Shown piece after piece: positions 2,607-20,887 of a stretch of 64,000 bases of DNA. Below the pieces are notes generated by a model. The model saw nothing but the letters and a program-made list of their open reading frames with translations, ran no database searches and had not been told where the DNA came from. A program made the translations under genes and the position numbers. How positions within the stretch are numbered: position 1 is the first letter of the stretch; the number at the start of each line of letters is the position of its first letter. The DNA is taken from the NCBI GenBank assembly GCA_013152475.1, contig JAADGH010000213.1, positions 2,271 to 66,270 of the forward strand, given 5' to 3'. This DNA comes from Planctomycetota bacterium (lineage in GTDB: Bacteria > Planctomycetota > Brocadiia > JAADGH01).

Positions 2607-3420
2607 TGCTCTCTTCCTTCTGCTCTGACACGGGAATCTCCGGCTCAACATAACCAAGGTCTGTCGATATCTTATTCGCGGTTTCTTTCACCGCCCCTAC
2701 GACGACGTCATGTTCCGATTTTTTGAAGCGAACCCCGGGCATGCCCAGCCCGACCGACGCGACCACCTCGCCGGTGAAGTCGCGGATCGGCGCGGCAATG
2801 GCGAGCACCGTGTTGTTCTCCCGCCAGTATTCCAGGTACCCATCGCGGCGGGCCTGGGCCAAAATCCGATCGAGATCTTCGCGGGAGTGCACATCCTCAC
2901 TCTTGGCGTCTTCGATGGGGTGCACCGCGAGGTATCGCTCCAGCATGTGATCGGGAAGATGCGCCAGCAACACACGGCCACAGACACTCGTGAATCCCGT
3001 GCGAACTAACGAGCGCTCGAAGTTGACCGTGAGCATCTGGTTGCCAGCCGCACGCGCCACGAACAGAATTTCCCCGCCTTCGATCATCGCCACGATAACG
3101 GATTCGTTCAGCCGCTGGGCAAGTTCTTCGATGTGGGGGCGGGCAATTTCGGGGACGCGGAGCGTGCGGCGGTAGGCCCGGCCAAGAGACGCGCAGTTGA
3201 ACCCCAGCCGGTAGCGCTGGCTGGTCGCATCCTTCGCAACGTACCCCTTGGCGACGAGCGTTCGCAGCAGGTTGTGCGCGGTCGGCACTTTCAGGTCCAC
3301 GGCCTTCGCGAGCTCGGTGACGCCAAGCCCCCGCTCCGAGCGCCCGAGCACCTTGAGGATGTCGAGGGCCCGAACAACCGACTGAACAAGGCCGTTTCCG
3401 TTAGCTTTTATATTCAACAT
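2599..3420 (-). CDS. IclR family transcriptional regulator
   Basis: N-terminal wHTH (SVVRALDILKVLGRSERGLGVTELAKAVDLKVPTAHNLLRTLV) followed by an IclR-type effector domain of about 270 aa, the typical length. Confidence 0.9.
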   Translation of the reverse strand: MLNIKANGNGLVQSVVRALDILKVLGRSERGLGVTELAKAVDLKVPTAHNLLRTLVAKGYVAKDATSQRYRLGFNCASLGRAYRRTLRVPEIARPHIEELAQRLNESVIVAMIEGGEILFVARAAGNQMLTVNFERSLVRTGFTSVCGRVLLAHLPDHMLERYLAVHPIEDAKSEDVHSREDLDRILAQARRDGYLEYWRENNTVLAIAAPIRDFTGEVVASVGLGMPGVRFKKSEHDVVVGAVKETANKISTDLGYVEPEIPVSEQKEESNV

Positions 3421-5918: not shown

Positions 5919-5999
5919 ATGTAGCTCTTGCGGAGGGGGCGCGATTGGATCAGTCACAAGAGGGCGGAGGGAAATCACAGCTTCAAGCATAAGGATAGC

Positions 6000-7970
6000 A
6001 TGGGAGAGATTGACTTCCGAAAGCAGACCGGCGGAGGTGTTACGTTCCGCGCAGTCGTTCTTGGCCTCCTCTTGGTGTCCTTCCTCTCGGCCATTGTTCC
6101 TTACAGCGACTATTACCTTCACAACACACCGCTTACGGGCAACCATTTTCCTATCGGCGTCGTCTTTCTCTTTCTTTTTCTCTGTCTCGGCGTAAATACG
6201 GTTGTGCGCAACTTCTTCCGCGGCGCCGAGCTCTCCTCCGGCGAGCTGCTGACGGTGTGGTGCATGATGCTTGTCTCGGCGGGGCTTGCCTCCACGGGGC
6301 TGGCGCGGTATTTCTTTGCCATGCTCATCGGGCCGTTCTATTACGCCACGCCCCAGAACCGCTGGGCCGAGACGATCCACCGGCATATTCCAAAGGCCCT
6401 GTGCCCCTCTCAGGACCCGATCAGTCCGGTGATCTCCTATTTCTTCGAGGGCATGCCGCCCGACGCGACCATTCCGTGGTCGGCATGGCAGCGGCCGCTG
6501 ATCCTGTGGGGCATCCTGATCCTTATGCTCTACGGCCTCATGTTCTGCCTCTGCGCGATCCTCCGCAAGCAATGGGCCGAGCGCGAGCGGCTCAACTTCC
6601 CCCTGATCCAACTGCCCGTCGAGATGGCCGCCCCACCCGAACCCGGGTCGCTCATCAATTCCTTCTTCAAGAGCAAGGCCATGTGGATCGGGTTCATCAT
6701 CCCCGTGTTCCTCTATTTTCTGTCCGGGATGCACCGACTGTACTGGGGGCGATACTGGCCGCAGCCGCGCCTCTTTATCTGGCTGTGGAGCTTCTTCAAC
6801 TCCGAGCCTTGGCGCCACATGCGCCTCATGCGGCTGGGCATCTATCCGTCGATCATCGGGTTCACGTATCTCCTCACGCTTGAGGTGTCGCTCAGTTTCT
6901 GGTTCTTCTACTTCTTTATGCGCATGGAATACCTCCTCTGCGCCGTGCTCTGGCAGCCGATCTGGGGCGACTATTCCTCCCGTGCCATCCATCAGCAGGC
7001 CGGCGCGTTTCTCATGATGGCGGTCCTCCTGCTGTGGCGGGCCAGATCGCATCTCAGGGACGTGGTGGGCAAGGCCTTCAACAGCGATTACCCCGTGGAC
7101 GACTCGGAGGAGCCCCTATCCTACCGGACGGCCTTTTTCGGGCTGATCGGCCTGACCATCGGCGTGTGCGTGTGGTGCTCATACCTGGCGAACATGTCGG
7201 TCTTCTTCACCCTTGTGGCGCTTATTCTCCTTCTGACGATCCTCATGGTGCTTACTCGAGTGGTCGCGCAGGGCGGGCTGATCTTCGTCTCGCAGAATTT
7301 CCAGCCCTATGACATTATGACCACCACCTTCGGCTCGGCTACCATTGGCCCATCGACGCTGACGATTCTGGCCATTCAGAACATCGTCTTCATCCACGAC
7401 TCCCGCGAGGTCATGATGCCCAATATCATGAACTCTTTCAAGATCGGTGACAACCCCCGCATCAACCAGCGCGTCCTCTGCGCCGCCCTCTTCCTCAGCG
7501 TCATCGTCGGCATGATTGTGGCGGGGTATTTCTACCTCAAGTTGATGTACACCTACGGCGCGTCGAACCTCCAGCGGTGGGACCTGCGCCGGATATTCCT
7601 CTGGCGCTTCAACTCCCTGGTCTGGCGGATCCGAAGGCCGCGCTTCACCAACTGGCTGCTGCTGCGCTGGATGGGCTATGGCGCGGTGCTGATGGCCGGG
7701 TTATATTATATGAGCACACGGTTCTACTGGTGGCCGTTCCATCCGCTGGGTTTGCTCATGGCGAACACCTACCCGATGGAATGCTTCTGGTTTTCCATCT
7801 TTGTGGGGTGGTTCCTGAAGTCCTCGATCCTGAAGTATGGCGGGGGGCGGACCTATAAGAACATGCGCCCCTTCTTTCTCGGGTTGATCCTGGGGGAGGC
7901 GTTTATTGCGGGCTTCTGGGCCGCTTACGGGTTCCACGTGGGGCGCTGGTTGGTCAGAGTGTTGCCATAG
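6000..7970 (+). CDS. large polytopic inner-membrane protein, uncharacterised family
   Basis: ORF 5928..7970 trimmed to MGEIDFRK (AAGGA RBS). Has many hydrophobic helices throughout and no soluble domain. Confidence 0.8.
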   Translation: MGEIDFRKQTGGGVTFRAVVLGLLLVSFLSAIVPYSDYYLHNTPLTGNHFPIGVVFLFLFLCLGVNTVVRNFFRGAELSSGELLTVWCMMLVSAGLASTGLARYFFAMLIGPFYYATPQNRWAETIHRHIPKALCPSQDPISPVISYFFEGMPPDATIPWSAWQRPLILWGILILMLYGLMFCLCAILRKQWAERERLNFPLIQLPVEMAAPPEPGSLINSFFKSKAMWIGFIIPVFLYFLSGMHRLYWGRYWPQPRLFIWLWSFFNSEPWRHMRLMRLGIYPSIIGFTYLLTLEVSLSFWFFYFFMRMEYLLCAVLWQPIWGDYSSRAIHQQAGAFLMMAVLLLWRARSHLRDVVGKAFNSDYPVDDSEEPLSYRTAFFGLIGLTIGVCVWCSYLANMSVFFTLVALILLLTILMVLTRVVAQGGLIFVSQNFQPYDIMTTTFGSATIGPSTLTILAIQNIVFIHDSREVMMPNIMNSFKIGDNPRINQRVLCAALFLSVIVGMIVAGYFYLKLMYTYGASNLQRWDLRRIFLWRFNSLVWRIRRPRFTNWLLLRWMGYGAVLMAGLYYMSTRFYWWPFHPLGLLMANTYPMECFWFSIFVGWFLKSSILKYGGGRTYKNMRPFFLGLILGEAFIAGFWAAYGFHVGRWLVRVLP

Positions 7971-7991: not shown

Positions 7992-10900
7992 ATGCGTAAC
8001 GTCCGGATTGCATGTCACATCCTCCTGCTCCTTGCCCTCCCTGCTGCGGGGGCCTCCGCGCAGGGCGCAGGGGACGACATCGGCAGCCGCGCGGCGCTCA
8101 AGCGCACCATCGAATACCTCTCTTCCATCAACAGCCGCGTCACCGGCTATGCCGGCTGCGACGAGGCGGCTGCGTATGTGGAGATGCGCTTCCGCGAGTT
8201 GGGCCTCAGCAATATTGCGAGCGAGGAGTTCAAGCTGGCTGTGCCCGTGGACAGGGGGGCGCTCTTGACCGTCGGGAAGGGAAAAAACGCCAAAGAAATC
8301 CTCATCCACAGCCTGTGGCCCAACATGGTTCGCACCTCCAAGCTCCCGCCCACGGGGATCACGGGCTGCCTTATATACGGCCGCGGGGGCTACATGCTGG
8401 ACTTCAATGGGAAGGATGTCAAGGACAGCATCGTCTTGATGGAATTCAGCTCATCCACTCGCTGGCTGAACGCCGCACAGTTGGGCGCAAAGGCGATCAT
8501 CTTTATCGAACCACCTGGGGATATTCTGTTCCGCACCGATGCGGAGGAAAAATTCTTCGAGATTCCACTGCCCATGCCCCGCTTTTGGATCGCAAAGGCC
8601 GATCTCGCGGCGCTCGTGAAGGCGTTGGGCGTGAAGGCCCCACCGGTCGAGAACCGCCGCAAGCTCGAAATCAGCTTGCGCGAGGTCTTGTCCAAGAAGC
8701 GGCACTCCGTTCGGATCAAGGCCGACATGGCCTGGGAGATGCGCACGGCGCGCAACATCATCGCCACCATTCCCGGCACCGACCGCGAGCTTCGCAAGGA
8801 TACGATTATCCTCGAGGCCTACTATGATTCCATCTCGATCGTCCCCGGCCTGGCGCCGGGCGCTGAATCGACCTGTGGCCTGGCGATGATGCTCGAGCTG
8901 GCGCGATGGGCCGTCAAGCACCCCCCCCGGCGAACCCTCAAATTCGTTGCGGCGCCGGGGCATTTCGAGGCCCTGGCGGGCATCCGAGAGTATTCGAAGA
9001 AGCACTACTACACCCGGTACGAGCCGGAAGAGTCCTCAGAGCAGGAGGCCCGCGAAGAAGAAAAGGCCGAGCTGGAACAGGCCGAGCGCGAGGGGGTGCG
9101 AAAGCCCGGCCACCTCATGATCTCCCTCGATCTGTCCAGCGGGGAGAACCAGCTGGCTCTTTTCTACAAAGGGCATTTCTACGACCAATGGGCCGCTTGG
9201 GGCGAAGGACAGGAGGGGCGGCACCAGCGCCAGTTCATCCGCCTCGCCGAGCGAATCATGACGTACTACGAGGACCTCGACTCCGCCGAGTTTGACTCCA
9301 CACTCCTCAACGGCGTCGTGCCGAAACGGGATCGAGACTGGCAATCGATGGTCCCAGGCAAGATTGCCCTCGACAGCGAGGTGGTATGTCTCGCAGGCCG
9401 GCAGGCCGTGGCGTTTGTTACGGCCAACGACTCCCGGAGTTATGTAGACACGCCGCTGGATGTCGTCGCGAAGGTTCGATTTGACAATCTCGAGGCCCAG
9501 GCGAAGCTCTTGATCGCCCTGTTTGGGAAGATCTTCAACGACCCGGAGCTCCCGCTCACCGATAAACTGCACCAGGGATGGGTGGGCGACTCCTTCGGCA
9601 AGGTGCGCGAGGACCTCCTGCTGGCATACCTTCCCGAGACGGCCATCCCCGGCGCCGTCGTCGGCGTCCTGCTCACCAACGAAACGAAACCGCTGTTCGG
9701 CGTCCGGCCGCGGGCCTACACCATCAGCGAGTCGCATGGATTGTTCGAGTTCTTCGGCCTGGACCGGAACGCGCGGCCCTACTGGCGGAATGTTGTGGCC
9801 TTCAAACTGGACCCCAAGGACGGCAGCATCTCGTGGGCCTTGAAGCCGCGAAGCGAAAACCGTCAGTTCGGCCTGCATCCGATCTGGTGGCGGAGGCGGA
9901 ATAAGGACTGGACGAAACGGGCCATCGACATCCGCCTGCCCGTGTTTCAGTGCACCTCATGGGTGATCTACGACCTGATCGACCAACTGGACCTGCAAAG
10001 CCTGGGGAAGCTGACGGTGCTGGACGCGAGCACAAACGCGAAGCCGCGCAAGGCCGTCTACTTCCTGGGGGAGGTGGGGGAGGGCACGTCCTTTTCCGAA
10101 CCGTGCGCCGTGGTATTTACCGAGCCGGACACGCACATCAAGCTGACCATGGAGCCGCGCGGCCGTGGCATCCAGCAACAGCGCCTTACCCTCCTGAATG
10201 TTCCCCCCGGCATCGTGACGGTCGTCAATGTGCGGACCAACAAGGAACTGGCCATATTTCCGGGGCACAAGGGCGAGGTGGACGCGGTGGCCTTCGCCCC
10301 CGACGGGGTGACTGTCGCGTCGGGCGGCGAGTCGGGGCTCTGCCGCATATGGCCCCTGGCCGTTCACAAGGAGGGGGAGACCGTGAAGGGGGAGGTGCTT
10401 CGGGGACATACGGCCCGGATCAACGACCTGGATTTTTCGCCCGACGGCCGATTCCTGGTGTCGGCGTCGGACGATCACACGTGCCGCGTCTGGGACTGGA
10501 AACGCAAGGAAGAGATCGGGCGGTTCGAGCAGCACGGGGCGCCGGTGCTGTCTGCTCGGTTCTCCCCGGACGGGCGGCGCGTGGTTTCGGGCAGCGCCGA
10601 CGGGAAGGTGTGGATCTGGCCGATTCGCCCTGACAAGAAGGCCAAGATCGAACCGAAGAGCGTTCTCCTTGCCGGGCACACAGGCGGGGTGAACGCGGTC
10701 GCGTTTTCTCCGGACGGAACGCGGGTGGTTACCGGTTCCGACGACATGACGTGTCGCGTCTGGGACGCGGCCACCGCAAAGGTCCTTTGTACGTTTGCGG
10801 GGCACCGCGGCGCGGTGAACGCCGTCGCGTTCTCGCCGGATGGGAAGCGTGTGGCGTCAGGGTCGGACGATACCACATGCCGCGTCTGGAACGCAGAGAA

Positions 10901-13859
10901 CGGGACCGGGCAACTGGTCCTTGAGGGGCACACGGGCGACATCCTGACCCTTCTCTTTTCGCGGGACGGGAAGGAAGTCGTCACGGCAGCAGATGACGGG
11001 ACCAGCCGCCGGTTCGACGCCGCTACGGGCAAGGAAATCCAGCGGCAGGACGTACGGGCCTGGGACGTGGCGCGGCTGGGCTTGCGAAAGGGGGACCCGA
11101 TCCTTGCCATGATGGACCCCTCTCGGCGCAAAGAGAGCCAGGAGGGCGTCGGTTTCGCGCCGGTACCCGGCAAGTCCGAGAATTTTATCTACAACACCTC
11201 ATACCGCGTGGCCCGGGATATGTGGGGGCTGGATGCCTTCCGGATCGAGAAGCTGCGCGAGACGGGCATCGCAAACAAGCGTGTGGATGAGCTGCACTCC
11301 CTGGCCGGGCGGTGTCTCCACAAGGCGAAGAAGCATTGGCGACAAAGGAACTACGACAAATTCCTCGATGCGGTCCGATCGTCCTGGGCCTTCGAGTCGG
11401 GGGCCTACCCCCATGTCCACCGGACGGCGAATGACGTGCTCATCGGGATTATGTTCTACTTCGCCGTGCTTATGCCCTTTGTTTTCTTCTGTGAGCGGCT
11501 GCTCATCGCCGCCGCCGACATCCGCCGACAGCTCATGTGGCTGGGGATCATCTTTCTGATCGTCTACCTCATCCTGTATGGGGTGCATCCGGCCCTCCGG
11601 CTGTCGAGCACGCCGATTATCATTATCGACGGGTTCTTCATGATCGCCTTGGGTCTGCTGGTGATCTTCTATATCCTGAACAAGTTTAATCAACAGATGG
11701 AAGACGCCCGGGCCAAGTCCACGTTTGTCCACCGGACCGATGTGGCCCGGGGCTCTGCGGCGGCGGCAGCCTTTCTGCTGGGCATCTCGAACATGCGGAA
11801 GCGAAAGGTCCGCACGGCCCTGACGTGCATTACCTTGATCTTGCTCACGTTTTCGCTTCTTTCGCTCGCGTCCTTCGAGACCGAGCTGCGCTCCTACAAG
11901 GTGGCCACAAAGTACAACAAACCCTACGAGGGAGTGCTCCTTCGGCGGCTCAACTGGGCGCCCATCGAGGAGCACGCCTATTATACACTTTTGGAACACT
12001 TCCGCGACGCCGGCGGGCTGTGCTGCCTTCGGTCGTGGATTTCTCCGGAACGGGGCCAGAACCTTGCTCTGGATGTGACCAACGTGGAGAACCCGCGGTG
12101 GGGGGCCTATGCGGCCAGGGGCGTTCTGGGGCTGGATCCGCGCGAGCCAGAACTGACCGGGCTGGACAGACACCATCTCAAAGGCGCACGATGGTTTACC
12201 GGGAAAGAGGAACGGTATCCCTTCGTCTGCCTGCTGCCAAAACATATGGCTGAGGAAATCGGAATCGAACTGAAGCCGAACCAGCCGCCGCCGCAGGTGC
12301 GACTGCTTGGCAACGACCTGGATGTGATCGGAATCTTCGACGACTCCATCGGCATGCTCGACCACATTCGTCTCGAACACTTTCGCAAGCCTCCTGAAGG
12401 CGAGGATTTGGACGCCTGCAAGAAGGGCGAGTGGTATGTCTGCCCGTACTGTGGGGAGCAGTTCGCCTCCAAGACAGGTTTCTACGGCACCACGGACCTT
12501 GACAGCGAGCCGCTCACACCGGTGGACTTTGCAGAGATGCAGGAGCGTCACGAGGAAGAGGAGTCTCTGGACCTGCAGGAGGAGGACGAGAGCGGGACCA
12601 AGAGCACGAAGAGCGAGCTGCTGCCGGACCCCGATGACTACTACCACCAGGATCCGGGCAACGTGGTGATCGTGCCCAACGACCTCGCCATCAAGATGGG
12701 CGCGACGATTCGCTCGATCGGTGTGAAGCTGCAGGGCCGGAAGGTAAAGCAGATCGTCGAGAAGTTCACGCAGCGGACGAATCTGCTGCTCTTCACCGGT
12801 GTCCCCGTTTCGCCGGAGGAGGAGGCGCGGGGGTCGAAGGGCGTTTACCTCTACCGGTCGAGAGGGCAGCTCTCGGTGAAGGGCATTGCGAACCTGCTTG
12901 TGCCGATGGCGATTGCCGGCCTGATCGTCTTCAACACCATGCTTGGCTCGGTGTATGAGCGAATGAAGGAGATCAGCATCTACGCCTCGGTGGGTCTGGC
13001 GCCTATGCACATCTCCGCCCTCTTTCTCGCGGAGTCGACGGTGTATGCCATCATCGGCGCTGTGGTGGGGTATCTGATCGGGCAGATTGGGGCGCGGTTC
13101 CTCACGCTGAATTTCCCGAACATCGGGCTGAACCTGAACTATTCCTCGACGGCCGCGGTCTGGGCCACGATGATGGTGATCGGGATCGTCATTCTGTCCA
13201 CGGCCTATCCGGCGCGCAAGGCGGCGCAATTGTCCGTGCCCGATGAGACGCGGAAGATGAAGCTGCCGAAGCCGGAAGGGGACATATGGAAATTCGTGTT
13301 CCCCTTCACCGTCAGGCACACGGAGACGATTGCCGTGAGCATGTTCCTCCACGACTACTTCACCTCCCACGACGAGGACGCACTGGAGGGGTTCACTGCG
13401 GACGAAGTGGGTCTGGCCGAGAAGGAAGCGGGGGACAGGACGGTGTACATCCTGACGAGCAAGGTATGGGTGCAGCCGCTTGACATGGGCATCAGCCAGT
13501 GGGTGAAGATCACGACCTTCCCCGATCCCACCGATGAACAGCTTTACCTGATGGAGTTCGAAATCCACCGAGAGAGCGGCGAGGTGGAGGCATGGGGGCG
13601 GATGAACGTGGGGTTCTTGCGGTTGGTGCGGAAGCAGCTCCTCATCTGGCGGCTGGTCGAGTCCGACTACAAGAAACGGCTCGACATGCGCGGACGCGCC
13701 GTTCTGGCCGGAGAGCCCGTGCCCCCGCCGTATGAGGATGAGCCGGAGGCCGAGGAGACCGAAACGGCCTCGGAATCCGCGCAGGGGGGAGAGGATGGCG
13801 ACGACGAGGCGCTCGATCCCGAAGAGTTCAGGAGTGAAGGAAGCGGAACGACTACGTGA
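7992..13859 (+). CDS. 1955-aa fusion protein: signal peptide, degenerate PA/M28 peptidase-like domain, WD40 propeller, 3 TM helices and an FtsX/MacB-type permease with a large extracytoplasmic loop and acidic tail
   Basis: AAGGAAGGG RBS. Signal peptide ILLLLALPAAGASAQG. M28-like block LEAYYDSISIVPGLAPGAESTCGLAMMLELAR. At least six WD40 units (GH..FSPDG....DD.TCRVWD). FtsX TM1 RKRKVRTALTCITLILLTFSLL. FtsX C-terminal helices LVPMAIAGLIVFNTMLGSVYERMKEISIYASVGL...AYPARKAA. Confidence 0.9.
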   Translation: MRNVRIACHILLLLALPAAGASAQGAGDDIGSRAALKRTIEYLSSINSRVTGYAGCDEAAAYVEMRFRELGLSNIASEEFKLAVPVDRGALLTVGKGKNAKEILIHSLWPNMVRTSKLPPTGITGCLIYGRGGYMLDFNGKDVKDSIVLMEFSSSTRWLNAAQLGAKAIIFIEPPGDILFRTDAEEKFFEIPLPMPRFWIAKADLAALVKALGVKAPPVENRRKLEISLREVLSKKRHSVRIKADMAWEMRTARNIIATIPGTDRELRKDTIILEAYYDSISIVPGLAPGAESTCGLAMMLELARWAVKHPPRRTLKFVAAPGHFEALAGIREYSKKHYYTRYEPEESSEQEAREEEKAELEQAEREGVRKPGHLMISLDLSSGENQLALFYKGHFYDQWAAWGEGQEGRHQRQFIRLAERIMTYYEDLDSAEFDSTLLNGVVPKRDRDWQSMVPGKIALDSEVVCLAGRQAVAFVTANDSRSYVDTPLDVVAKVRFDNLEAQAKLLIALFGKIFNDPELPLTDKLHQGWVGDSFGKVREDLLLAYLPETAIPGAVVGVLLTNETKPLFGVRPRAYTISESHGLFEFFGLDRNARPYWRNVVAFKLDPKDGSISWALKPRSENRQFGLHPIWWRRRNKDWTKRAIDIRLPVFQCTSWVIYDLIDQLDLQSLGKLTVLDASTNAKPRKAVYFLGEVGEGTSFSEPCAVVFTEPDTHIKLTMEPRGRGIQQQRLTLLNVPPGIVTVVNVRTNKELAIFPGHKGEVDAVAFAPDGVTVASGGESGLCRIWPLAVHKEGETVKGEVLRGHTARINDLDFSPDGRFLVSASDDHTCRVWDWKRKEEIGRFEQHGAPVLSARFSPDGRRVVSGSADGKVWIWPIRPDKKAKIEPKSVLLAGHTGGVNAVAFSPDGTRVVTGSDDMTCRVWDAATAKVLCTFAGHRGAVNAVAFSPDGKRVASGSDDTTCRVWNAENGTGQLVLEGHTGDILTLLFSRDGKEVVTAADDGTSRRFDAATGKEIQRQDVRAWDVARLGLRKGDPILAMMDPSRRKESQEGVGFAPVPGKSENFIYNTSYRVARDMWGLDAFRIEKLRETGIANKRVDELHSLAGRCLHKAKKHWRQRNYDKFLDAVRSSWAFESGAYPHVHRTANDVLIGIMFYFAVLMPFVFFCERLLIAAADIRRQLMWLGIIFLIVYLILYGVHPALRLSSTPIIIIDGFFMIALGLLVIFYILNKFNQQMEDARAKSTFVHRTDVARGSAAAAAFLLGISNMRKRKVRTALTCITLILLTFSLLSLASFETELRSYKVATKYNKPYEGVLLRRLNWAPIEEHAYYTLLEHFRDAGGLCCLRSWISPERGQNLALDVTNVENPRWGAYAARGVLGLDPREPELTGLDRHHLKGARWFTGKEERYPFVCLLPKHMAEEIGIELKPNQPPPQVRLLGNDLDVIGIFDDSIGMLDHIRLEHFRKPPEGEDLDACKKGEWYVCPYCGEQFASKTGFYGTTDLDSEPLTPVDFAEMQERHEEEESLDLQEEDESGTKSTKSELLPDPDDYYHQDPGNVVIVPNDLAIKMGATIRSIGVKLQGRKVKQIVEKFTQRTNLLLFTGVPVSPEEEARGSKGVYLYRSRGQLSVKGIANLLVPMAIAGLIVFNTMLGSVYERMKEISIYASVGLAPMHISALFLAESTVYAIIGAVVGYLIGQIGARFLTLNFPNIGLNLNYSSTAAVWATMMVIGIVILSTAYPARKAAQLSVPDETRKMKLPKPEGDIWKFVFPFTVRHTETIAVSMFLHDYFTSHDEDALEGFTADEVGLAEKEAGDRTVYILTSKVWVQPLDMGISQWVKITTFPDPTDEQLYLMEFEIHRESGEVEAWGRMNVGFLRLVRKQLLIWRLVESDYKKRLDMRGRAVLAGEPVPPPYEDEPEAEETETASESAQGGEDGDDEALDPEEFRSEGSGTTT
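10263..11024 (+). repeat. intragenic tandem ~126-nt (42-aa) WD40-coding repeats
   Basis: Six consecutive units with recurring nucleotide strings, e.g. gacga...acgtg(c/t)cgcgtctgg(g/a)ac, encoding DD.TCRVW(D/N). Confidence 0.85.
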
Positions 13860-15811
13860 GCATTCTCCAAGAAGACTATTTATCCATACGTGAGCTTCAG
13901 GAAGAACCGCAGGAATACCAGGAAGGGTTTGGCTGGAAGGCCGTGATCGGCGGCCTTTTTGTCGGCTTCTTAATGGTTCCGGGCAACATGTTCCTGGAGC
14001 TTATGGTCGGGAGCCACATCGGGGCCGCAGCGGACTGGGTGACGGTCATCATCTTCATGGAGATCGCCAAGCGCTGCCGGTCGAAGCTGACGAAACAGGA
14101 GATCGTCATCCTCTACATGATCGCGGGCGGCGTACTGGGCAGCGCCACCGGGGGGTACTTCAAGACCTTTATCTGGAACCAGTATTTCGTGCGATCGGAG
14201 GCGGCGGTCAATTTCGGGATCGGCGAGCGTATTCCCATCTGGGTCGCCGCCCCGCCGGAGTCGGAGGCCTACAAGATCCGGTCCCTGCTCCACCGGGACT
14301 GGTGGCCCCACATCGCCTTGATCGGGATCGGCATTATCTGGGGGCGGCTCAACCTCTACTCTCTGGGCTACACCTTCTTCCGGCTCACGTCGGACATCGA
14401 GCGCCTGCCGTTTCCGCTGGTTCCCATCGCGGCCCAGGGCATCACCGCCCTGGCCGAGTCCGATAAAGAGACCTGGCGCTGGAAGTGTTTCAGCATCGGC
14501 GCCACCATCGGCATCGTCTTCGGGGCGATCTATATCGGTGTGCCGACGCTCACGGCGGGCATTTTAGGGAAACAACTCCAGATTATTAAAGTACCCTTTT
14601 ACGACTTCACCCGGAATCTCGAGACGATCCTTCCCGCCGTGCCGATCAAATTACCGACCAACCTGGGTCAGGTGTTCATCGGGTTCGTCTTGCCCTTCTG
14701 GATGATCATGGGGTCGGCCATTGCCGGCGTCATCGGCCAGCTTGTCATGAACCCGATCCTGTACCGATGCGGTATCCTGGTGAAATGGCACCCGGGCATG
14801 GGGTTCATCGAGACGAGCATCGCCAACAATCTCGACTTCTGGCTGAGCTGGGGGATCGGCGTGGCCCTTGCCGTCGCACTGATCGGCTTTTACGAGGTCA
14901 TCAAGACGCTGTGGAAGGCCAGGACGCAGAAAAAGGAGTACCAGCACATCTATGAACCGCCGAAGGGGCGGGGGGACATACCCGTTCCGCTGTCGATCCT
15001 CTTCTACATCGCCACGACATCCTGGAAGATCATCCTCTGTCACATGCTGGTGCCGAAATTCCCGGTCTGGATTATGGTTGTCTTCGGCTTCCTCTATACC
15101 CCGCTCATGTCCTACATCTCGGCCCGCATGGTGGGCCTGACGGGACATGGCGTGGGCTTTCCCTACATTGATGACGCGGCCTATATCCTGAGCGGCTATA
15201 AGGGCATCGACATATGGATGGCCCCCATGCCGATGGGCAACTATGGAGGGCAGGCGGCAAGTTTCCGAAAGACGGAGCTGACGGAAACGCGCTTCACCAG
15301 CCTCTTCAAGATGCAGCTCTACATCATTCCGCTGGCCTTCTTCTGCAGCCTGTTCTTCTGGTCCTTCATCTGGCGTATGGGCAAGATACCCTCTCACCTC
15401 TACCCCTACGCCGCAATCTATTGGCCCATGGGGGCGTTTCAGCGCGCCTTCTGGCTGACGGCCACCACCACGGGCAATGAGTTCTTCTTGAGCGCAATCA
15501 AGTTCCGGGTGATCGGCGCGGGCCTGACCTTCGGCATGGTCGGCTATCCGATCATGCGGATTCTGGGGTTGCCCACGCTGTTGCTCTACGGCATGATTCG
15601 CGGCATGGCGACGGACCCGATGGACTGCATCCCGGAGGTGCTGGCTGCGTTCACGGGAAGATGGTACTTTGCGAAGCGATTCGGCGAGCAGAACTGGCGC
15701 CGATACACCCCCATCCTGGCGGCGGGATTCGGGTGCGGAATGGGCCTGATCGGCATGGTCTGTGTGGCGGTGAGCCTGGTCTCGAAGGCCATTTCGTCCC
15801 TTCCTTTCTGA
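13856..15811 (+). CDS. large polytopic membrane protein, possibly OPT-superfamily-like transporter
   Basis: The GTG start overlaps the upstream stop (GTGA). The N-terminal pattern FGWKAVIGGLFVGFLMVPGNMFLELMVGSHIGAAADWVTVIIFMEIAKR...KQEIVILYMIAGG is reminiscent of OPT N-termini (weak, by eye). Hydrophobic throughout. Confidence 0.82.
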   Translation: MSILQEDYLSIRELQEEPQEYQEGFGWKAVIGGLFVGFLMVPGNMFLELMVGSHIGAAADWVTVIIFMEIAKRCRSKLTKQEIVILYMIAGGVLGSATGGYFKTFIWNQYFVRSEAAVNFGIGERIPIWVAAPPESEAYKIRSLLHRDWWPHIALIGIGIIWGRLNLYSLGYTFFRLTSDIERLPFPLVPIAAQGITALAESDKETWRWKCFSIGATIGIVFGAIYIGVPTLTAGILGKQLQIIKVPFYDFTRNLETILPAVPIKLPTNLGQVFIGFVLPFWMIMGSAIAGVIGQLVMNPILYRCGILVKWHPGMGFIETSIANNLDFWLSWGIGVALAVALIGFYEVIKTLWKARTQKKEYQHIYEPPKGRGDIPVPLSILFYIATTSWKIILCHMLVPKFPVWIMVVFGFLYTPLMSYISARMVGLTGHGVGFPYIDDAAYILSGYKGIDIWMAPMPMGNYGGQAASFRKTELTETRFTSLFKMQLYIIPLAFFCSLFFWSFIWRMGKIPSHLYPYAAIYWPMGAFQRAFWLTATTTGNEFFLSAIKFRVIGAGLTFGMVGYPIMRILGLPTLLLYGMIRGMATDPMDCIPEVLAAFTGRWYFAKRFGEQNWRRYTPILAAGFGCGMGLIGMVCVAVSLVSKAISSLPF

Positions 15812-15818
15812 GGCGGCG

Positions 15819-17477
15819 ATGAAAGCAAGCACAAAGAGGTTCCTGATTGCGTTCGGCTATCTCGCCACGCTGGCGTGGATCGTCCCCGCGTTCATGCACA
15901 TCGTGTATCAGTCTGTGGAACAGCACCACATCTTCGCCATGCTCCGAACCGTCCGGTACAATCAAGACGAACCGGCGATCGGCGAGGCCGAGAAGGGCCT
16001 CAGCGAGTTCGGCTTGGAGGGCCTCATCTATGTCATTCAGGAATTGAAACAAGATGAGGAGCGTGACCGGCGAATCAAACTGACCAATGTGTTGGAGCGA
16101 TTCCTGACGGGCGATTCGGACCGCGGCCGCTGGGGATGGGGCGAGAATCACGCCCTGCGTCAGCTTCTCGATACCTGGCCGAAAACACCCGGGCGAAGGA
16201 TGGCCGAGCTGAACATGGAGCAGATGAAGGAGATCCTGTTACACAGGAAACCGGGGGAACTCAAGCCGCACGAACGGCGGCAGCTCCTGAACTTCGCAAT
16301 TGAGTATGCCCTGATCACCTTGCGGTGGGACATTGACGAGAAGACCCAGGTCTTTCGGAACCGAGGGGAGCGGCTTCGGTTCAGCGAGTTTTTGGCGCTT
16401 GTGCGCAGCGAGCAGCTCCGAATGCAATTCCAGGTGACGGAGGCGAAGCCCGAAGTCGAGCTCAGCGGCGATCAGATGAAGCGCGCGGAGGACTTCGCCA
16501 AGGATTGGCTGGACAAGGAGGCGGGGCTGAGTAACAAGCTTGGACAATCCGAAGAGGCCGATCTCGCCTGGAAACTCCAGGGCTTCCTCGGCGGAGCCCC
16601 CGTTGCCTTCGTCCCCGAAGAGTGCGACAAGATGATCCGGATACTGGAGGACCAGCGGGCGAAGGAGGCGATGCTTTCCCCCAAGCTGTTGCCTGCGGCA
16701 TACGCCTCCTTGCAGCAAAAACTCCGCATGTTTTCGGACGGGGCGGCGGTGCGCTTTCCGGATGAGGACATGAAAGACGTCTGCACGAGGCTGGAGAAGT
16801 TCAAGGATGACTACATCAGCTACGCCGTCGAGATGAAGTTCAAAAAAACCACGGAAGGCCACTTTCTCAAACTGAAAGACGCAGGCGTCAATCTGTTCGA
16901 CATCCGCAGGGACGAGGTGCCCGTTGTCCTGAAGATCATCCACGAATGCCGGCGGGAGTATGCCTACGCGCGGGTCCAGATGGCCCGCACGGCGCGGCGG
17001 ATCGTTCTCGACCTGACGGGGCGGCGGGTTCGGTTTCAGACCCTTGTGAGAGACCTGAGCCCGGACCTGGGAATTTTCGAACATATCAAAAAGGCATGGA
17101 AGGCCAAGAACGACGAGATCGTCATGCTCGATCTCATCGACCTGCTGCAGGACGATGACTTCGGCGTGCGAGTGAACATCTCCGATGCGCTCGTCGCCAT
17201 CGGAAATCCCGCCGTCTATTACCTGGTCGAACAACTGAAGAAGGAGCGGGTCAACTCCACGGCTGTCGTCCCCACGCGGGACAAGAGCCGGGCCGAGCGG
17301 GAAAAAGAGCTCAACGCCAAGAACACCCAGGCGCGCAAGGCGGTGGCCATGATCCTGGGGCGAATCGGATCGAAGGAAGCGGAGTTTCAACTCCAGCTGA
17401 TGACTCGAGACCCCGTCATTGGCGCAACCTGCCACAAGGCCCTCGAACGGCTGCGCAGGCAGAAAGCGAGGAAATGA
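15819..17477 (+). CDS. N-terminally anchored alpha-helical protein with C-terminal HEAT/PBS-lyase-like repeats
   Basis: TM helix FLIAFGYLATLAWIVPAFMHIVY. C-terminal LLQDDDFGVRVNISDALVAIGNPAVYYLV and ARKAVAMILGRIGSKEA repeats. The start lies 7 nt after the upstream stop. Confidence 0.78.
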   Translation: MKASTKRFLIAFGYLATLAWIVPAFMHIVYQSVEQHHIFAMLRTVRYNQDEPAIGEAEKGLSEFGLEGLIYVIQELKQDEERDRRIKLTNVLERFLTGDSDRGRWGWGENHALRQLLDTWPKTPGRRMAELNMEQMKEILLHRKPGELKPHERRQLLNFAIEYALITLRWDIDEKTQVFRNRGERLRFSEFLALVRSEQLRMQFQVTEAKPEVELSGDQMKRAEDFAKDWLDKEAGLSNKLGQSEEADLAWKLQGFLGGAPVAFVPEECDKMIRILEDQRAKEAMLSPKLLPAAYASLQQKLRMFSDGAAVRFPDEDMKDVCTRLEKFKDDYISYAVEMKFKKTTEGHFLKLKDAGVNLFDIRRDEVPVVLKIIHECRREYAYARVQMARTARRIVLDLTGRRVRFQTLVRDLSPDLGIFEHIKKAWKAKNDEIVMLDLIDLLQDDDFGVRVNISDALVAIGNPAVYYLVEQLKKERVNSTAVVPTRDKSRAEREKELNAKNTQARKAVAMILGRIGSKEAEFQLQLMTRDPVIGATCHKALERLRRQKARK

Positions 17478-18268
17478 TGGGGGCGCGCATCTTCAGGGTC
17501 CTGTTGGCGGCGGCCGTCATTTCCATTTTTGCTTCCGTGGCCATCGGGACGTATCTGCGCGGCAAACAGGCGTGTTTTGTGGTGACCCTTTCCCCCGAGG
17601 GCGAGCCCGCAGAGGGCGTCATCCAGGCGGTGGTCAAGGCGCTTTCCCGCCGGACCGCCCAGTATGGCAAGGACTTCGGGGTTGTTCGGAGCACGATCTC
17701 TGCGGAGGAAGACGGTCCCATCACGATGAAGATCTGGGCGGAGGGTGAAATCGATGGGTTTCTGCGCTGTCTTACGCAGACGGGGGAGATGGAGTTTCGC
17801 CTCGTGAAGGGAAGGGGGAAGGATCAAAAGCCTGATGCCGAGCACGAGCTGGTCTCATGGCGCCAGGAGTACTATAGCATTCGGGAACTCGGCCAGAAGG
17901 TCGTGGAGGTGATGCCGTTCCTCGTCAGAAAGAAGCCGGAACATCGGGTGCGGTCCTTTGCGTCCGTATCGTGCCGGACGGAAGGGCTGGGGGGCAACCC
18001 CGTCATTACACTCCAGCTCCATCCCGAGGACGCCCGCGCCCTGAATCAGGTCCGTCGGGCGAACACGGGGAAGGAGATGGCTGTGGTGATCGACGGGGCC
18101 GTCCTGGTCTCCGCGGTGGTCGCCGGTTCGGTGGAGACGGACCGGATCGAGATTCGCGGCATCCGCGGCGTGATAGAGGCCCGTCGTGTCGCCGCCATGC
18201 TGGAAATCGGCGCGTTGCCGGTGAAACTCACGGTTACGAAGGTTGAGAAGGTCAAATCAGCGACATGA
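17474..18268 (+). CDS. membrane-anchored SecD P1-head-like domain protein (no SecDF transmembrane core)
   Basis: ATGA overlap with the upstream gene. TM helix FRVLLAAAVISIFASVAIGTYL. GEMEFRLV and GGNPVITLQL..DARALNQVRRANTGKEMAVVIDGAVLVSAVVAGSVETDRIEIRG.....EARRVAAMLEIGALPVKL match the SecD periplasmic head pattern. Confidence 0.72.
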   Translation: MMGARIFRVLLAAAVISIFASVAIGTYLRGKQACFVVTLSPEGEPAEGVIQAVVKALSRRTAQYGKDFGVVRSTISAEEDGPITMKIWAEGEIDGFLRCLTQTGEMEFRLVKGRGKDQKPDAEHELVSWRQEYYSIRELGQKVVEVMPFLVRKKPEHRVRSFASVSCRTEGLGGNPVITLQLHPEDARALNQVRRANTGKEMAVVIDGAVLVSAVVAGSVETDRIEIRGIRGVIEARRVAAMLEIGALPVKLTVTKVEKVKSAT

Positions 18269-20853
18269 ACGATTTCGTCCGAAAATATCTCGTCATTGCC
18301 CTGGTTATGGCGTTTGCCGCGTGCAGCGTCGGGTACGGGATTTGGGCCGCCCTGAACACCAGAGAAGCCGGACTGAAGGAGGATGCGGACAAACTGGCCG
18401 CCCAGGACGAAAGCGTTCGGAAGGCGGCGCGGGAGCGGCTGCTGAACGCCGGCATCCGTTCGATCAATCCCCTGCTTCGGGCGGTCAAATTGGGCGACCT
18501 CGATCTTCGCATCGCCGCGACTGAACTGCTGGGCGAGGTGGGAAGGCGTGACCAGGAACGCCTCGTGGACGCGAACATTGAGAAAGTGGTGAAGACCCTG
18601 GCCGAGGAAATTGCCAAGGAATCCCCCAGCGGAGGCTTTGTGATCGTGTCGCCCAGCCATGAAATGCGGGTGCGCGTGGCGCGGGCGCTGGGGCAGTACT
18701 CCTCCGAGGCGAGCGTGGAGCTGCTCCTTGTCCTGCTCGACGACAAGGAACAAGATGTCCGTCTTGCAGCGCGCGACTCGCTTGTCAGCGCCGGGATCCG
18801 CGGCTCGCGTGTGCTGGCGCGGCGCTTGGCGGACAAAAAGCGGGGGAAGAACCCGCTCCTGGCGAATGCGGTGGATGCCCTCGTTCAGAACATCGTCAAG
18901 GATGTGCTGGACAAGAACGCCTACGGGGATGTTCGCATGCGTGCGGCCCGCGCGCTTCGCGACCTCGGGGGCTCGCGCATCGAAAATGCCAAGGGGATGG
19001 TGGAGCTGATGCTCAACGAGGACGGGGAACTGCGGCTGCGCAAGGTGGCGGCCGACGTAGTGCCCGACATCGCCCCGGACCGGTTGAGGCCGCTCGCGCC
19101 CGAGCTGAAAAAGGGCCTGGAGAAGGATGAGGAAGGCGCGATCTCGATCAAGAACGGGACCATCGCCCTCGGTGTGGCCAAGAGCCTTGCGCGGATTGGT
19201 GAGCCGGAGGGGATGGAGTACGTCATCGAGTGCCTGGAAAACGGCGATGCCATGGTCCGCCTGTCGGCCGCGGAGGCATTGAATGAGCTCGGCGTCAAGG
19301 CAAAGAAGGAGATCATCAAGAACCTGGACAATCCGGCCGCCATGGTTCGCGGGCCGGTGTTGCGCGTGCTTCCTGATGTGGAAGCTCGGCCGGAGGCGGA
19401 GAAGGAGTTGATGGAGGGCCTGGACGACACCGACGGCGACGTCCGTACGGCGGCCGCCATCGGTCTGGGACGGATGGGCGATGACGATGCCATTCCCAAG
19501 CTCATCTCGCGCCTCGATGACCGCCGCTCGCGGGTCCGGCACTATGCCGAGTGGGCCGTTCAGGACATGGGGCCGGCCGCAAAGCCTTACCTGGAGGCCA
19601 CCCTGGCCTCTCGCACAGACTGGCCCTGCGAGAGCTTCGTGGCCGTTGTCTCGGACATGGTGATTGATGCCTTCAAGCGCCGGGGGCTTGCCACGCGGAA
19701 GGATGCGGTGGATGAGGCGATCCTGGAGGAGCTGGAGTTCCGGCGTATGAATCTGCCCACGCCGTGGGCGGTTCGTGTCGTTGTGAAAGGGGAGAACGGA
19801 AAGGACCTGGCACCCCTCATCCTGGATGTGCGCGAGGTGTTTGTGTTTCTCACCACCCTCTCGCGGATGACCGGCGTGCCGCAGGAGCGTTTGCTGTTCA
19901 TGGGGCGGGATGTGGTGGAATGCCTGGAACGCCGCGGAATTCGGTTTCAGATGTTCGACCAGCTTGATCCCTCACTGAAAAAGGGTCCCAAGAACGTCGT
20001 GCCGCTGCAATACAGCTCCTTCTACATGATCGCGGGGATGCTGGGGATCCTTGGGGACAAGGGGTCCGTGCCTGCCCTTCTGAATGCGCTGGAGTCCGGC
20101 GACCTCGACCTGCTGTCTCCGGCGGCGTGGGCGATCGGCATGATTGCCGACAGAACGGCGGGCCCATTGCCTGAGGAGGAGAAGATCGTCGAAAAATTTA
20201 TGGATCTGGCGCTGAACAGCAAGCCCGGAGCGAATGACCCGACCGCGGTAAAGACGGCCCACATGCTGGTTCGTGAAAAATCCGTCGAGGCGCTCGGAAA
20301 AATTGCCGATCCGAAAGCGAAACCTACCTTGCAGAATATCCTCGTCTGCGACGACCAGGGCCGCGTCCGGACCGCCGCCAGCATTGCCATCGCAAAGATT
20401 GATGGCGGCGAACGACGCATTTTGTTTGACCAGTACGTGGACATCCTTGACCACCATGAAGACCAAAGCGTCCGCACCGCCGCGACGAAGAAGATCGGCG
20501 AGCTCGGCAGCTTTGAGGCCAGGAATCTACTGCTCGGACTGATCCGCAAGGAAAAGGAATATGCCCCCGTGCTGGACGCGGCTGAGGCCGCCCTCAAGAC
20601 CCTGACCGGCAAGGACTACAGCAAGGAAGTCACTGCGAAACGTCTTGATGTCCCCAAGGAAGAGGAAAAAACTGAGGAGTCGAAGAAAGCCGAGGAAACA
20701 AAAAAAACCAAAGACTTGAACGCCCCCGTCGCATCCACTCCCAAGGCATCCAAATCCGTGCCGCCCAAACCGGCCGGGAAGCCCAAGGGGAAAGCGATCC
20801 CACCGAAGGGGTCTTCCAAGAAATCGAACCAACCTGCTGCACCCGGGCCGTAA
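18265..20853 (+). CDS. N-terminally anchored HEAT-repeat protein with Lys/Pro-rich basic C-terminal tail
   Basis: ATGA overlap. TM helix YLVIALVMAFAACSVGYGIWAAL. Many HEAT-like units (D..VR.AA..ALG.IG). The last ~70 aa form a K/P/E low-complexity region. Confidence 0.85.
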   Translation: MNDFVRKYLVIALVMAFAACSVGYGIWAALNTREAGLKEDADKLAAQDESVRKAARERLLNAGIRSINPLLRAVKLGDLDLRIAATELLGEVGRRDQERLVDANIEKVVKTLAEEIAKESPSGGFVIVSPSHEMRVRVARALGQYSSEASVELLLVLLDDKEQDVRLAARDSLVSAGIRGSRVLARRLADKKRGKNPLLANAVDALVQNIVKDVLDKNAYGDVRMRAARALRDLGGSRIENAKGMVELMLNEDGELRLRKVAADVVPDIAPDRLRPLAPELKKGLEKDEEGAISIKNGTIALGVAKSLARIGEPEGMEYVIECLENGDAMVRLSAAEALNELGVKAKKEIIKNLDNPAAMVRGPVLRVLPDVEARPEAEKELMEGLDDTDGDVRTAAAIGLGRMGDDDAIPKLISRLDDRRSRVRHYAEWAVQDMGPAAKPYLEATLASRTDWPCESFVAVVSDMVIDAFKRRGLATRKDAVDEAILEELEFRRMNLPTPWAVRVVVKGENGKDLAPLILDVREVFVFLTTLSRMTGVPQERLLFMGRDVVECLERRGIRFQMFDQLDPSLKKGPKNVVPLQYSSFYMIAGMLGILGDKGSVPALLNALESGDLDLLSPAAWAIGMIADRTAGPLPEEEKIVEKFMDLALNSKPGANDPTAVKTAHMLVREKSVEALGKIADPKAKPTLQNILVCDDQGRVRTAASIAIAKIDGGERRILFDQYVDILDHHEDQSVRTAATKKIGELGSFEARNLLLGLIRKEKEYAPVLDAAEAALKTLTGKDYSKEVTAKRLDVPKEEEKTEESKKAEETKKTKDLNAPVASTPKASKSVPPKPAGKPKGKAIPPKGSSKKSNQPAAPGP

Positions 20854-20858
20854 TTTCC

Positions 20859-20887
20859 TTGACACCCAAGAGCAAAGCGATTAGAAT
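20859..20887 (+). promoter_or_regulatory. near-consensus sigma70-type promoter upstream of purA
   Basis: TTGACA (20859-20864)-N17-TAGAAT (20882-20887), immediately after the HEAT gene stop. Confidence 0.5.

Follow-up and report, generated by a model that had tools for sequence, protein, structure and literature searches.

A giant planctomycetal protein with an M28-like ectodomain, a WD40 insert and a MacB-type permease unit, encoded next to an OPT-like transporter

The 64,000-nucleotide stretch analyzed here, hereafter the window, belongs to a Planctomycetota bacterium (assembly GCA_013152475.1, contig JAADGH010000213.1, positions 2,271 to 66,270). It contains one giant gene, a single unbroken open reading frame (ORF) on the forward strand, which starts with ATG and encodes 1955 residues according to the ORF list and the translation. 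[quoted passage not shown] The giant protein is no stand-alone oddity; it is one half of a conserved pair with the OPT-like transporter. In order, it contains a signal peptide, a PA/M28-like ectodomain, six WD40 repeats, a helical stalk, three extra transmembrane (TM) helices, a MacB-type permease unit, a 165-residue cytoplasmic domain and an acidic tail; the permease unit is composed of TM1, a periplasmic core domain and TM2–TM4. The initial annotation had claimed such an order within one polypeptide, and Pfam, hydropathy and the translation located every listed element where it had been placed. The coordinates are collected in Table 1.

As read from the sequence, the signal peptide (MRNVRIACHILLLLALPAAGASA, followed by QG) combines a positively charged n-region with a hydrophobic core and an AXA site, and the PA/M28-like region follows it as claimed. 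The three extra hydrophobic helices, which had been placed at nt 11430–11690, correspond to residues 1149–1167, 1181–1199 and 1209–1227 by hydropathy. The basic linker RKRKVR before TM1 occupies residues 1269–1274; the extracytoplasmic domain, estimated at ~335 residues, measures 333 residues; and TM2–TM4, placed at nt ~12890–13245, span residues 1629–1738 by hydropathy. This four-TM arrangement is also seen in the AlphaFold2 (AF2) model. The Lys/Arg counts of the loops fit the positive-inside rule, and the predicted topology, with the ectodomain and WD40 part outside and both the N- and C-termini of the FtsX part inside, is supported and self-consistent. An exact-sequence look-up returned no database record of the protein, and Rfam and promoter/terminator scans returned nothing relevant. 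One antisense ORF (11199–13568, reverse strand, 789 residues) lies wholly within the giant gene; because the G+C content is 61% and the coding evidence on the forward strand is strong, it is most likely a shadow ORF.

Both the unusual length of the gene and the lack of a WD40 module in all other family members examined could suggest an assembly or frameshift artefact that joins separate genes, yet this explanation is effectively refuted and has next to no probability left. Through a scan of species-representative genomes, we found an independent metagenome-assembled genome (Planctomycetota MAG129, locus L004) that has the same 1955-residue ORF, matching residues 1–1955 at 83% identity and carrying six WD40 repeats at the same site (E 3e-68). 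Between the two genes, the WD40 part shows 73% identity and a ratio of nonsynonymous to synonymous substitution rates (dN/dS) of 0.17, at dS ~1; all other regions, the acidic tail apart, show 81–97% identity and dN/dS values of 0.01–0.15. The G+C content at third codon positions (GC3) of the insert is 0.816, equal to that of the flanks. The closest relative, P0001 (1585 residues), is colinear on both flanks, being 58% identical N-terminally and 63% C-terminally, and the window protein has ~310 extra residues between the two colinear halves. In addition, the M28–FtsX fusion itself recurs in at least 595 genomes. Since the insert is shared with L004 at the same site, has a dN/dS of 0.17 and has the GC3 of its flanks, we judge it to be old, in frame and under purifying selection.

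The WD40 blades, assigned to nt 10263–11024 in the initial annotation, were recovered as six PF00400 repeats (E 3e-64) at residues ~740–1020; several whole-propeller models also scored above their cut-offs, for instance Beta-prop_WDR3_1st with 187.9 bits versus 154. The 310-residue insert contains six canonical repeats, and its length is compatible with seven blades; the tandem repeats suffice for a closed propeller. The family alignment used throughout this study comprises 36 members including the window protein; its WD40 columns hold 331 residues in the window protein versus 22–42 in the other 35. Among the family members examined, WD40 repeats occur only in the window protein and L004, that is, in two Planctomycetota genomes, and none of the other members of ~1900–3050 residues has them. 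Searching with the insert, we found only generic WD40 proteins of 300–555 residues at no more than 45% identity, with no donor and no further giants, and a metagenome scan with a junction-spanning query gave only unrelated WD40 proteins at 27–34% identity. The WD40 insert is a rare, clade-specific elaboration located between the ectodomain and the stalk.

Judged by its motifs and its predicted model, the C-terminal half of the giant protein shows the fold and sequence signatures of MacB/LolC/FtsX. Pfam FtsX (PF02687) matched residues 1639–1748 with an E-value of 6e-14 (52.6 bits versus a cut-off of 25.5), the PDB profile matches of the permease include YtrF (3e-14) and MacB (8e-13), and the NCBIfam models of MacB, LolC and ADOP matched in part. 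The AF2 model of residues 1046–1955 has a predicted local distance difference test (pLDDT) score of 81.6 and a predicted template-modelling (pTM) score of 0.68. After the stalk, it contains a TM bundle, a β-rich periplasmic domain and a compact α+β cytoplasmic domain. In the Foldseek search, 520–560 columns of the model were aligned to MacB, LolC/E and HrtB, with E-values of 8e-9 for MacB and 4e-8 for LolC/E. The pneumococcal Spr0694-0695 transporter was matched as well, BceB only weakly, and the YknZ ectodomain gave a TMt of 0.56 but an E-value of 0.05. In many homologues, the periplasmic core domain is recognized by Pfam MacB_PCD (PF12704), for example in P0431 (E 9e-10).

The four-TM topology, the basic motif before TM1 and the ER..EI coupling helix are defining features of the MacB family (PMC5985334). 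In the coupling helix of the window protein (VYERMKEISIY), E1656, R1657, E1660 and I1661 are invariant in the alignment. The longer NTMLG[SA]VYER..EI motif after TM2 is also invariant there, and it is kept in 79 of the 84 genes found at the places compared, which are the window and 83 related loci. Almost no variation is seen in the basic motif before TM1. It is kept both in loci with and in loci without a linked ATPase gene, and the coupling motif is equally conserved in the 39 ATPase-linked and the 45 unlinked loci. Purifying selection on the coupling helix and on the TM1 N-terminal motif is very strong (dN/dS 0.01–0.03). The stalk is 88% identical to that of L004 (dN/dS 0.03), and in the AF2 model no break separates its last helix from the first extra TM helix. 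Within the three extra TM helices, P1162, E1168 and H1199-P1200-A1201 are invariant across the family.

Two further elements were observed in the periplasmic core domain. One is an acidic loop; the other is an insert (12384–12491, residues ~1465–1500) that carries CKKGEWYVCPYCGEQF, has a CxxC knuckle and gives weak zinc-finger-like Pfam matches. This insert is lineage-specific, being shared with P0001 and absent in P0003, and is modeled with low confidence. Outside the cytoplasm, motifs of the zinc-ribbon kind are unusual.

The cytoplasmic domain with an acidic end that had been claimed for the C-terminus consists of a folded, family-specific domain followed by a 45-residue tail. With the folded domain, Foldseek found no match at E ≤ 1e-3; the top 50 weak matches were nearly all of helix-grip (Bet v 1/START) type, with E-values of 4e-3 to 3e-2, TM-scores of 0.26–0.42 and a root-mean-square deviation of ~10 Å. 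Compared to L004, the acidic tail is 40% identical, with a dN/dS of 0.54.

The ectodomain is related to PA-containing M28 aminopeptidases. Pfam Peptidase_M28 (PF04389) matched residues 255–323 (E 5e-6; 26.7 bits versus a cut-off of 21.3), covering profile positions 1–65 of 193 only, and Pfam PA matched residues 125–180 below its cut-off (E 4e-4). When the family profile was compared with the PDB, the best-matching aminopeptidases were 2ek8 from Aneurinibacillus (E 1e-23) and YwaD from Bacillus (6hc6, E 9e-22), which have the same M28/PA segment order and are the closest sequence relatives of this region; among the inactive relatives, the transferrin receptor (5e-11) and nicalin (2e-7) were matched, and nicastrin weakly (~8e-3). 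Pfam, PDB profile search and fold search thus back both the FtsX/MacB and the PA/M28 homology. Residues 373–735 are 86% identical to L004 (dN/dS 0.09). The last part of the ectodomain, residues ~521–735, belongs to no known family, giving no Pfam or PDB match.

Members of the M28 family are recognized by fold and sequence homology and by the zinc ligands His-Asp-Glu-Asp-His together with the catalytic Glu. In the giant family these zinc and catalytic positions are substituted in essentially all aligned members. The first zinc His is replaced by Tyr, so that the AH.DS motif reads AYYDS; the bridging Asp is replaced by Glu or variable (E/D/S/Q); the Glu-Glu pair is His-Phe in the window protein and non-acidic in other members; and the last His ligand is replaced by Asp. 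Owing to the replacement of the zinc and catalytic residues, the M28-like domain is a predicted pseudo-peptidase and not an active M28 peptidase, and the label of a transferrin-receptor-like M28 module, also used in the initial annotation, describes it better. It is quite improbable that the giant protein is an active tethered aminopeptidase, whose remodelled site still cleaves peptides and feeds them to an OPT-like importer. Such a role would agree with the clear homology to active PA-M28 aminopeptidases, with the frequent His at the catalytic-Glu position and the Asp at the last His-ligand position, and with a partner from a peptide-transporter family. However, every mapped zinc and catalytic position is substituted in essentially all 36 aligned members, the Pfam match stops after one third of the M28 model, and known M28-fold proteins with such losses are non-catalytic, as is the case for the transferrin receptor, nicastrin and nicalin.

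Different from 2ek8 and YwaD, which are soluble, the giant ectodomain is tethered to the membrane, has no zinc or catalytic residues and contains a large internal loop that serves as an insertion site. Like the transferrin receptor, nicastrin and nicalin, which act as receptor or binding subunits of membrane complexes, it is a membrane-attached M28/PA-fold ectodomain without the metal site. Those three proteins are eukaryotic and single-pass, whereas the giant ectodomain forms one chain with an ABC-type permease. In sequence the two groups are only distantly related, and the active site was probably lost independently.

The second half of the pair is the 651-residue polytopic protein encoded by the next gene. 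A homologue of this partner lies downstream of the giant gene in 82 of the 84 places, within 1 kb in 71 of them. Its database homologues form at least 1551 clusters and are named 'peptide transporter' or 'OPT family' at NCBI. Five of ten close homologues (48–62% identity) pass the cut-off of Pfam OPT (PF03169), with 26.5–37.5 bits versus 25.8, and most are matched near full-length, four of them over OPT positions ~100–620 of 623. Different from the OPT family, the partner has no solved relative; neither the partner nor the DUF6785 protein matched any PDB entry by sequence or profile search. A Pfam scan of 25 partner sequences derived from the loci found OPT in one (E 0.13).

The DUF6785+DUF6784 protein encoded upstream of the giant gene is, by profile comparison, a distant paralogue of the OPT-like partner. 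The hhalign comparison of the two families gave 93% probability and an E-value of 3e-7; BLASTP between the two proteins was not significant, and the profile–profile comparison alone links them. In two loci, L026 and L041, there is no OPT-like partner downstream and a DUF6785 gene lies directly upstream of the giant gene instead. Because DUF6785 stands in for the partner in these loci, the two polytopic proteins may be interchangeable. In P0343 (2120 residues), the C-terminus of the giant protein continues into a full DUF6785-type protein (residues 1475–2117; hidden Markov model E 7e-181). It may be a natural fusion of giant and DUF6785 proteins, and a missed stop codon in the assembly is possible; a fusion with the OPT-like partner was ruled out by BLASTP.

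The giant protein belongs to a large family. Using residues 1046–1955 as the query, phmmer retrieved 1210 representatives, which are clusters at 50% identity, at E ≤ 1e-30. The relatives are encoded in the genomes of at least 595 species, mostly from uncultured phyla; the carriers include Planctomycetota (with Brocadiaceae), Omnitrophota, Poribacteria, Armatimonadota, Latescibacterota, WS1, TA06, Desantisbacteria and Fervidibacterota. A word-index search with the C-terminal half gave about 50 homologues, most of them 1425–1621 residues long with Pfam M28 and FtsX, with or without MacB_PCD. The initial annotation had regarded the fusion as undescribed. No paper was found in literature searches on an M28–FtsX fusion, on DUF6785 or on FtsX/M28/OPT combinations, and to this extent the claim holds; the M28–FtsX fusion is nevertheless common to a large family, and only the WD40 insert is rare.

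Members of the family range from ~1450 to 3053 residues in length, with the extra sequence at different sites in different lineages. The main hot spot is the site of the acidic loop in the M28-like domain (P0001 positions 327–443), which holds inserts of 170–760 residues in Poribacteria, Armatimonadota, WS1 and L005. One Poribacteria insert in the PA region (L020:10307-10903) gave a partial LysM match (E 1.5e-5, profile positions 1–24 of 43), which hints that the ectodomain of this lineage may bind peptidoglycan. Putative short forms of ~750–890 residues were rejected as real variants, as most begin mid-stalk and look like fragments. One 816-residue protein (P0005, L084:794-3244) consists of the C-terminal module alone, with a different N-terminus of ~95 residues, an OPT-like gene after it and no M28 module upstream; it looks like a real form without the ectodomain, on one contig at ~4x coverage.

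In 39 of the 83 related loci, an ATPase orthogroup of the LolD/MacB clade is encoded in the same cluster. Its best NCBIfam matches are LolD (9e-69) and the nucleotide-binding domain (NBD) of MacB (7e-68), followed by DarD, YbbA, DevA and FtsE. The ATPase forms part of an extended cluster, seen at L003:17064-19883 and at equivalent positions in ~40 loci (Poribacteria, Armatimonadota) and absent from the window. This cluster encodes a 314-residue protein without known family, a PqqD-like protein of ~155–172 residues and the LolD-like ATPase; the first two are cytoplasmic. Some phyla add a four-TM FtsX protein without periplasmic domain.

Several observations weigh against the assignment of the window protein to an ATP-driven MacB-type system with an OPT-like partner. 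The 64-kb window encodes no ABC ATPase at all. None of the 45 unlinked loci, among them those of Planctomycetota (L001, L004-L016) and most of those of Omnitrophota, has the cluster-type ATPase within 10 kb. Without a linked ATPase, ATP dependence in the Planctomycetota lineage is inferred from motif conservation only. The window protein itself has no match to Pfam MacB_PCD. The window copy of the partner misses the Pfam OPT cut-off, and its OPT assignment therefore rests on the homologues. In the extended cluster, the match to PqqD, a peptide-binding RRE, is only at threshold, and the substrate named below is a guess.

The main rival explanation, which we consider unlikely, is an ATPase-independent scaffold. 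According to it, the FtsX module of the Planctomycetota clade has ceased to act as an ABC motor and the giant protein is a static membrane anchor that organizes the two OPT-like/DUF6785 transporters and the anchored periplasmic HEAT-repeat and SecDF-head-like proteins, while the C-terminal domain occupies or replaces the NBD site. Besides the missing ATPase gene, the folded, family-conserved cytoplasmic domain directly after TM4 and the extra periplasmic genes that this clade has of its own would suit a scaffold. On the other hand, the unlinked loci keep the coupling helix and the TM1 motif just as well as the ATPase-linked ones do. Lineages that have the ATPase possess the C-terminal domain too, which argues that it is no ATPase substitute, and ABC systems often have unlinked NBD genes.

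We therefore return to the proposed MacB-type machine, whose working may be pictured as follows. The giant protein would dimerize through its FtsX helices; in some phyla it may pair with the small four-TM FtsX protein instead. An ATPase, encoded elsewhere in the genome in the Planctomycetota lineage, would dock on the invariant coupling helix. As in the mechanotransmission framework for MacB-type systems (PMC5985334), the TM helices would be zipped together by ATP and so move the periplasmic core domain; through the stalk helix, which leads without a break into the first extra TM helix, the motion would also reach the covalently attached pseudo-peptidase ectodomain. Together with the WD40 part in the window protein, or with Big_5 or LysM-like modules elsewhere, the ectodomain would serve as a periplasmic binding platform rather than as an enzyme. 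The machine would act jointly with the OPT-like transporter, and the likeliest job would be the capture or handover of peptides or of peptide-bearing envelope material. Coupling of a type VII ABC system to a partner protein has a reported precedent in YbbAP-TesA (PMC12646458).

A bolder version of the proposal, which we regard as doubtful, is a hybrid primary/secondary machine, a new class that would be widespread in Planctomycetota, Omnitrophota, Poribacteria, Armatimonadota and further uncultured phyla. Here an ATP-driven mechanotransducer of MacB type would be physically coupled to an OPT-type transporter, with the covalently attached dead peptidase as substrate receptor, for the uptake or extraction of peptides or peptide-linked envelope molecules; as an evolvable platform, the ectodomain would take up WD40, Ig-like or LysM-like modules and thereby change its specificity.

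Less probable than either the scaffold or the hybrid machine is an FtsEX-like regulator of envelope remodelling, in which the permease controls, or itself is, a module that binds peptidoglycan or the envelope, and peptides set free in this way are recycled by the OPT-like transporter. With the same fold, FtsEX systems are reported to activate hydrolases of the periplasm (PMC7668044, PMC10694151), the partner is a member of a peptide-transporter family, and the Poribacteria insert has its partial LysM match. However, this match covers 24 of 43 profile positions and is confined to one lineage. Neither a hydrolase domain nor an EnvC/PcsB-like partner was found in the clusters, no division genes lie in the neighbourhood, and the FtsX-specific NCBIfam models score far under their cut-offs and below MacB and LolC.

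On the forward strand of the window, six genes abut or overlap one another; they encode the DUF6785/DUF6784 protein, the giant protein, the 651-residue polytopic protein, a HEAT-repeat protein, a SecDF-P1-head-like protein and a second HEAT-repeat protein. A single hydrophobic anchor or signal is present at the N-terminus of each of the last three. Their genes are translationally coupled to the giant-gene operon and are syntenic only in L001, L004 and, in part, L007. A sigma-70-like promoter (20859–20887, forward strand; 11 of 12 consensus positions) lies just past the last stop codon of the operon and before purA (21036), and marks the 3′ boundary of the operon. On the reverse strand, two tandem, overlapping genes for radical SAM proteins resembling spore photoproduct lyase (55–1602 and 1344–2657) lie beside a gene for an IclR-type regulator (2599–3420); these genes are probably unrelated to the operon.

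Table 1. Features of the giant gene and its operon, and inserts found in other lineages of the family
Feature	Position	Strand	Basis or remark
DUF6785+DUF6784 polytopic protein, upstream	5928..7970	+	Pfam E 7e-153
Whole giant gene	7992..13859	+	ORF translation; full-length L004 orthologue at 83% identity
Sec-type signal peptide, residues 1-22, predicted cleavage between ASA and QG	7992..8057	+	Sequence; hydropathy peak at residues 4-22
PA and M28-like ectodomain (predicted pseudo-peptidase), residues ~23-520	8058..9551	+	Pfam M28/PA; family profile versus PDB; motif columns in 36 members
Acidic low-complexity loop in M28-like domain, residues 338-372	9003..9107	+	Main family insertion hot spot
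Conserved C-terminal part of ectodomain, residues ~521-735	9552..10196	+	Conserved across family
WD40 propeller insertion, residues ~736-1045	10197..11126	+	Six Pfam WD40 repeats; gap in other members
Periplasmic helical stalk, residues 1046-1145	11127..11426	+	AF2 helices 24-45, 51-72 and 76-127 (model numbering + 1045)
Three extra TM helices, residues ~1149-1227	11427..11681	+	Hydropathy; invariant columns; AF2 helices
Cytoplasmic linker, MacB-type N-terminal motif (LGISNMRKRKVRTALT) and TM1 (residues 1277-1295)	11682..11876	+	Sequence; motif conservation
Periplasmic core domain between TM1 and TM2, residues 1296-1628	11877..12875	+	Foldseek; MacB_PCD in homologues
FtsX domain: TM2, coupling helix (VYERMKEISIYASVG), TM3, TM4	12876..13226	+	Pfam; NCBIfam; PDB profile; motif conservation
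Family-specific cytoplasmic α+β domain, residues 1746-1910	13227..13721	+	AF2 pLDDT 92.6, pTM 0.88
Acidic disordered tail, residues 1911-1955, and stop codon	13722..13859	+	pLDDT below 50
Partner gene, 651-residue polytopic divergent OPT-superfamily transporter	13856..15811	+	Start overlaps stop of giant gene (GTGA)
HEAT-repeat (552 residues), SecDF-P1-head-like (264 residues) and HEAT-repeat (862 residues) genes	15819..20853	+	Pfam; overlapping start/stop codons
Poribacteria insert, 540-760 residues	M28-like-domain loop		No Pfam match
Poribacteria insert, 115-210 residues	PA region		One with partial LysM match
Armatimonadota and WS1 insert, ~170 residues	Same M28-domain loop		
Big_5 Ig-like domains in largest members (2769-3053 residues)	N-terminal of M28-like domain		

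Like MacB, LolCDE, FtsEX, YbbAP and BceAB, the giant protein has a unit of four TM helices, the first two of which are separated by a large periplasmic domain. It shares with type VII permeases the basic, amphipathic motif before TM1 and the coupling helix between TM2 and TM3, and with type VII systems the fold match to MacB, LolC/E and HrtB and, in the clusters of many relatives, a LolD/MacB-clade ATPase. Unlike type VII permeases, it has ~1270 residues (the pseudo-M28/PA region, WD40 repeats, stalk and three TM helices) before the permease unit and the conserved cytoplasmic domain after TM4. Unlike type VII systems, its gene is nearly always paired with an OPT-like gene, with no ATPase gene nearby in the Planctomycetota lineage; we know of no OPT transporter that forms a pair with a MacB-type permease. 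These features are missing from all arrangements catalogued for the MacB family (PMC5985334). As far as our searches reach, a large family in which an ectodomain, extra TM helices, a cytoplasmic domain and an OPT-family partner are added to a type VII ABC permease has not been described.

If the proposed assignment is true, the giant proteins would add a widespread branch to the MacB-type systems, of ~1200 clusters at 50% identity and at least 595 species, in many phyla without cultured models. The known systems that the family would join convert ATP into mechanical work in the envelope rather than into classical transport. The new branch would be set apart by a moving payload built into the permease as a pseudo-enzyme ectodomain, by a new cytoplasmic domain and by a secondary transporter as conserved partner, a combination for which we found no description. 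It would also be a bacterial example of the theme known from the transferrin receptor, nicastrin and nicalin, in which a dead M28 fold acts as the receptor of a membrane complex. One loop and one linker of the family serve as insertion sites for binding modules. For genes of this family, the existing annotations ('hypothetical protein', 'FtsX-like permease family protein' and 'M28 family peptidase') are uninformative or misleading.

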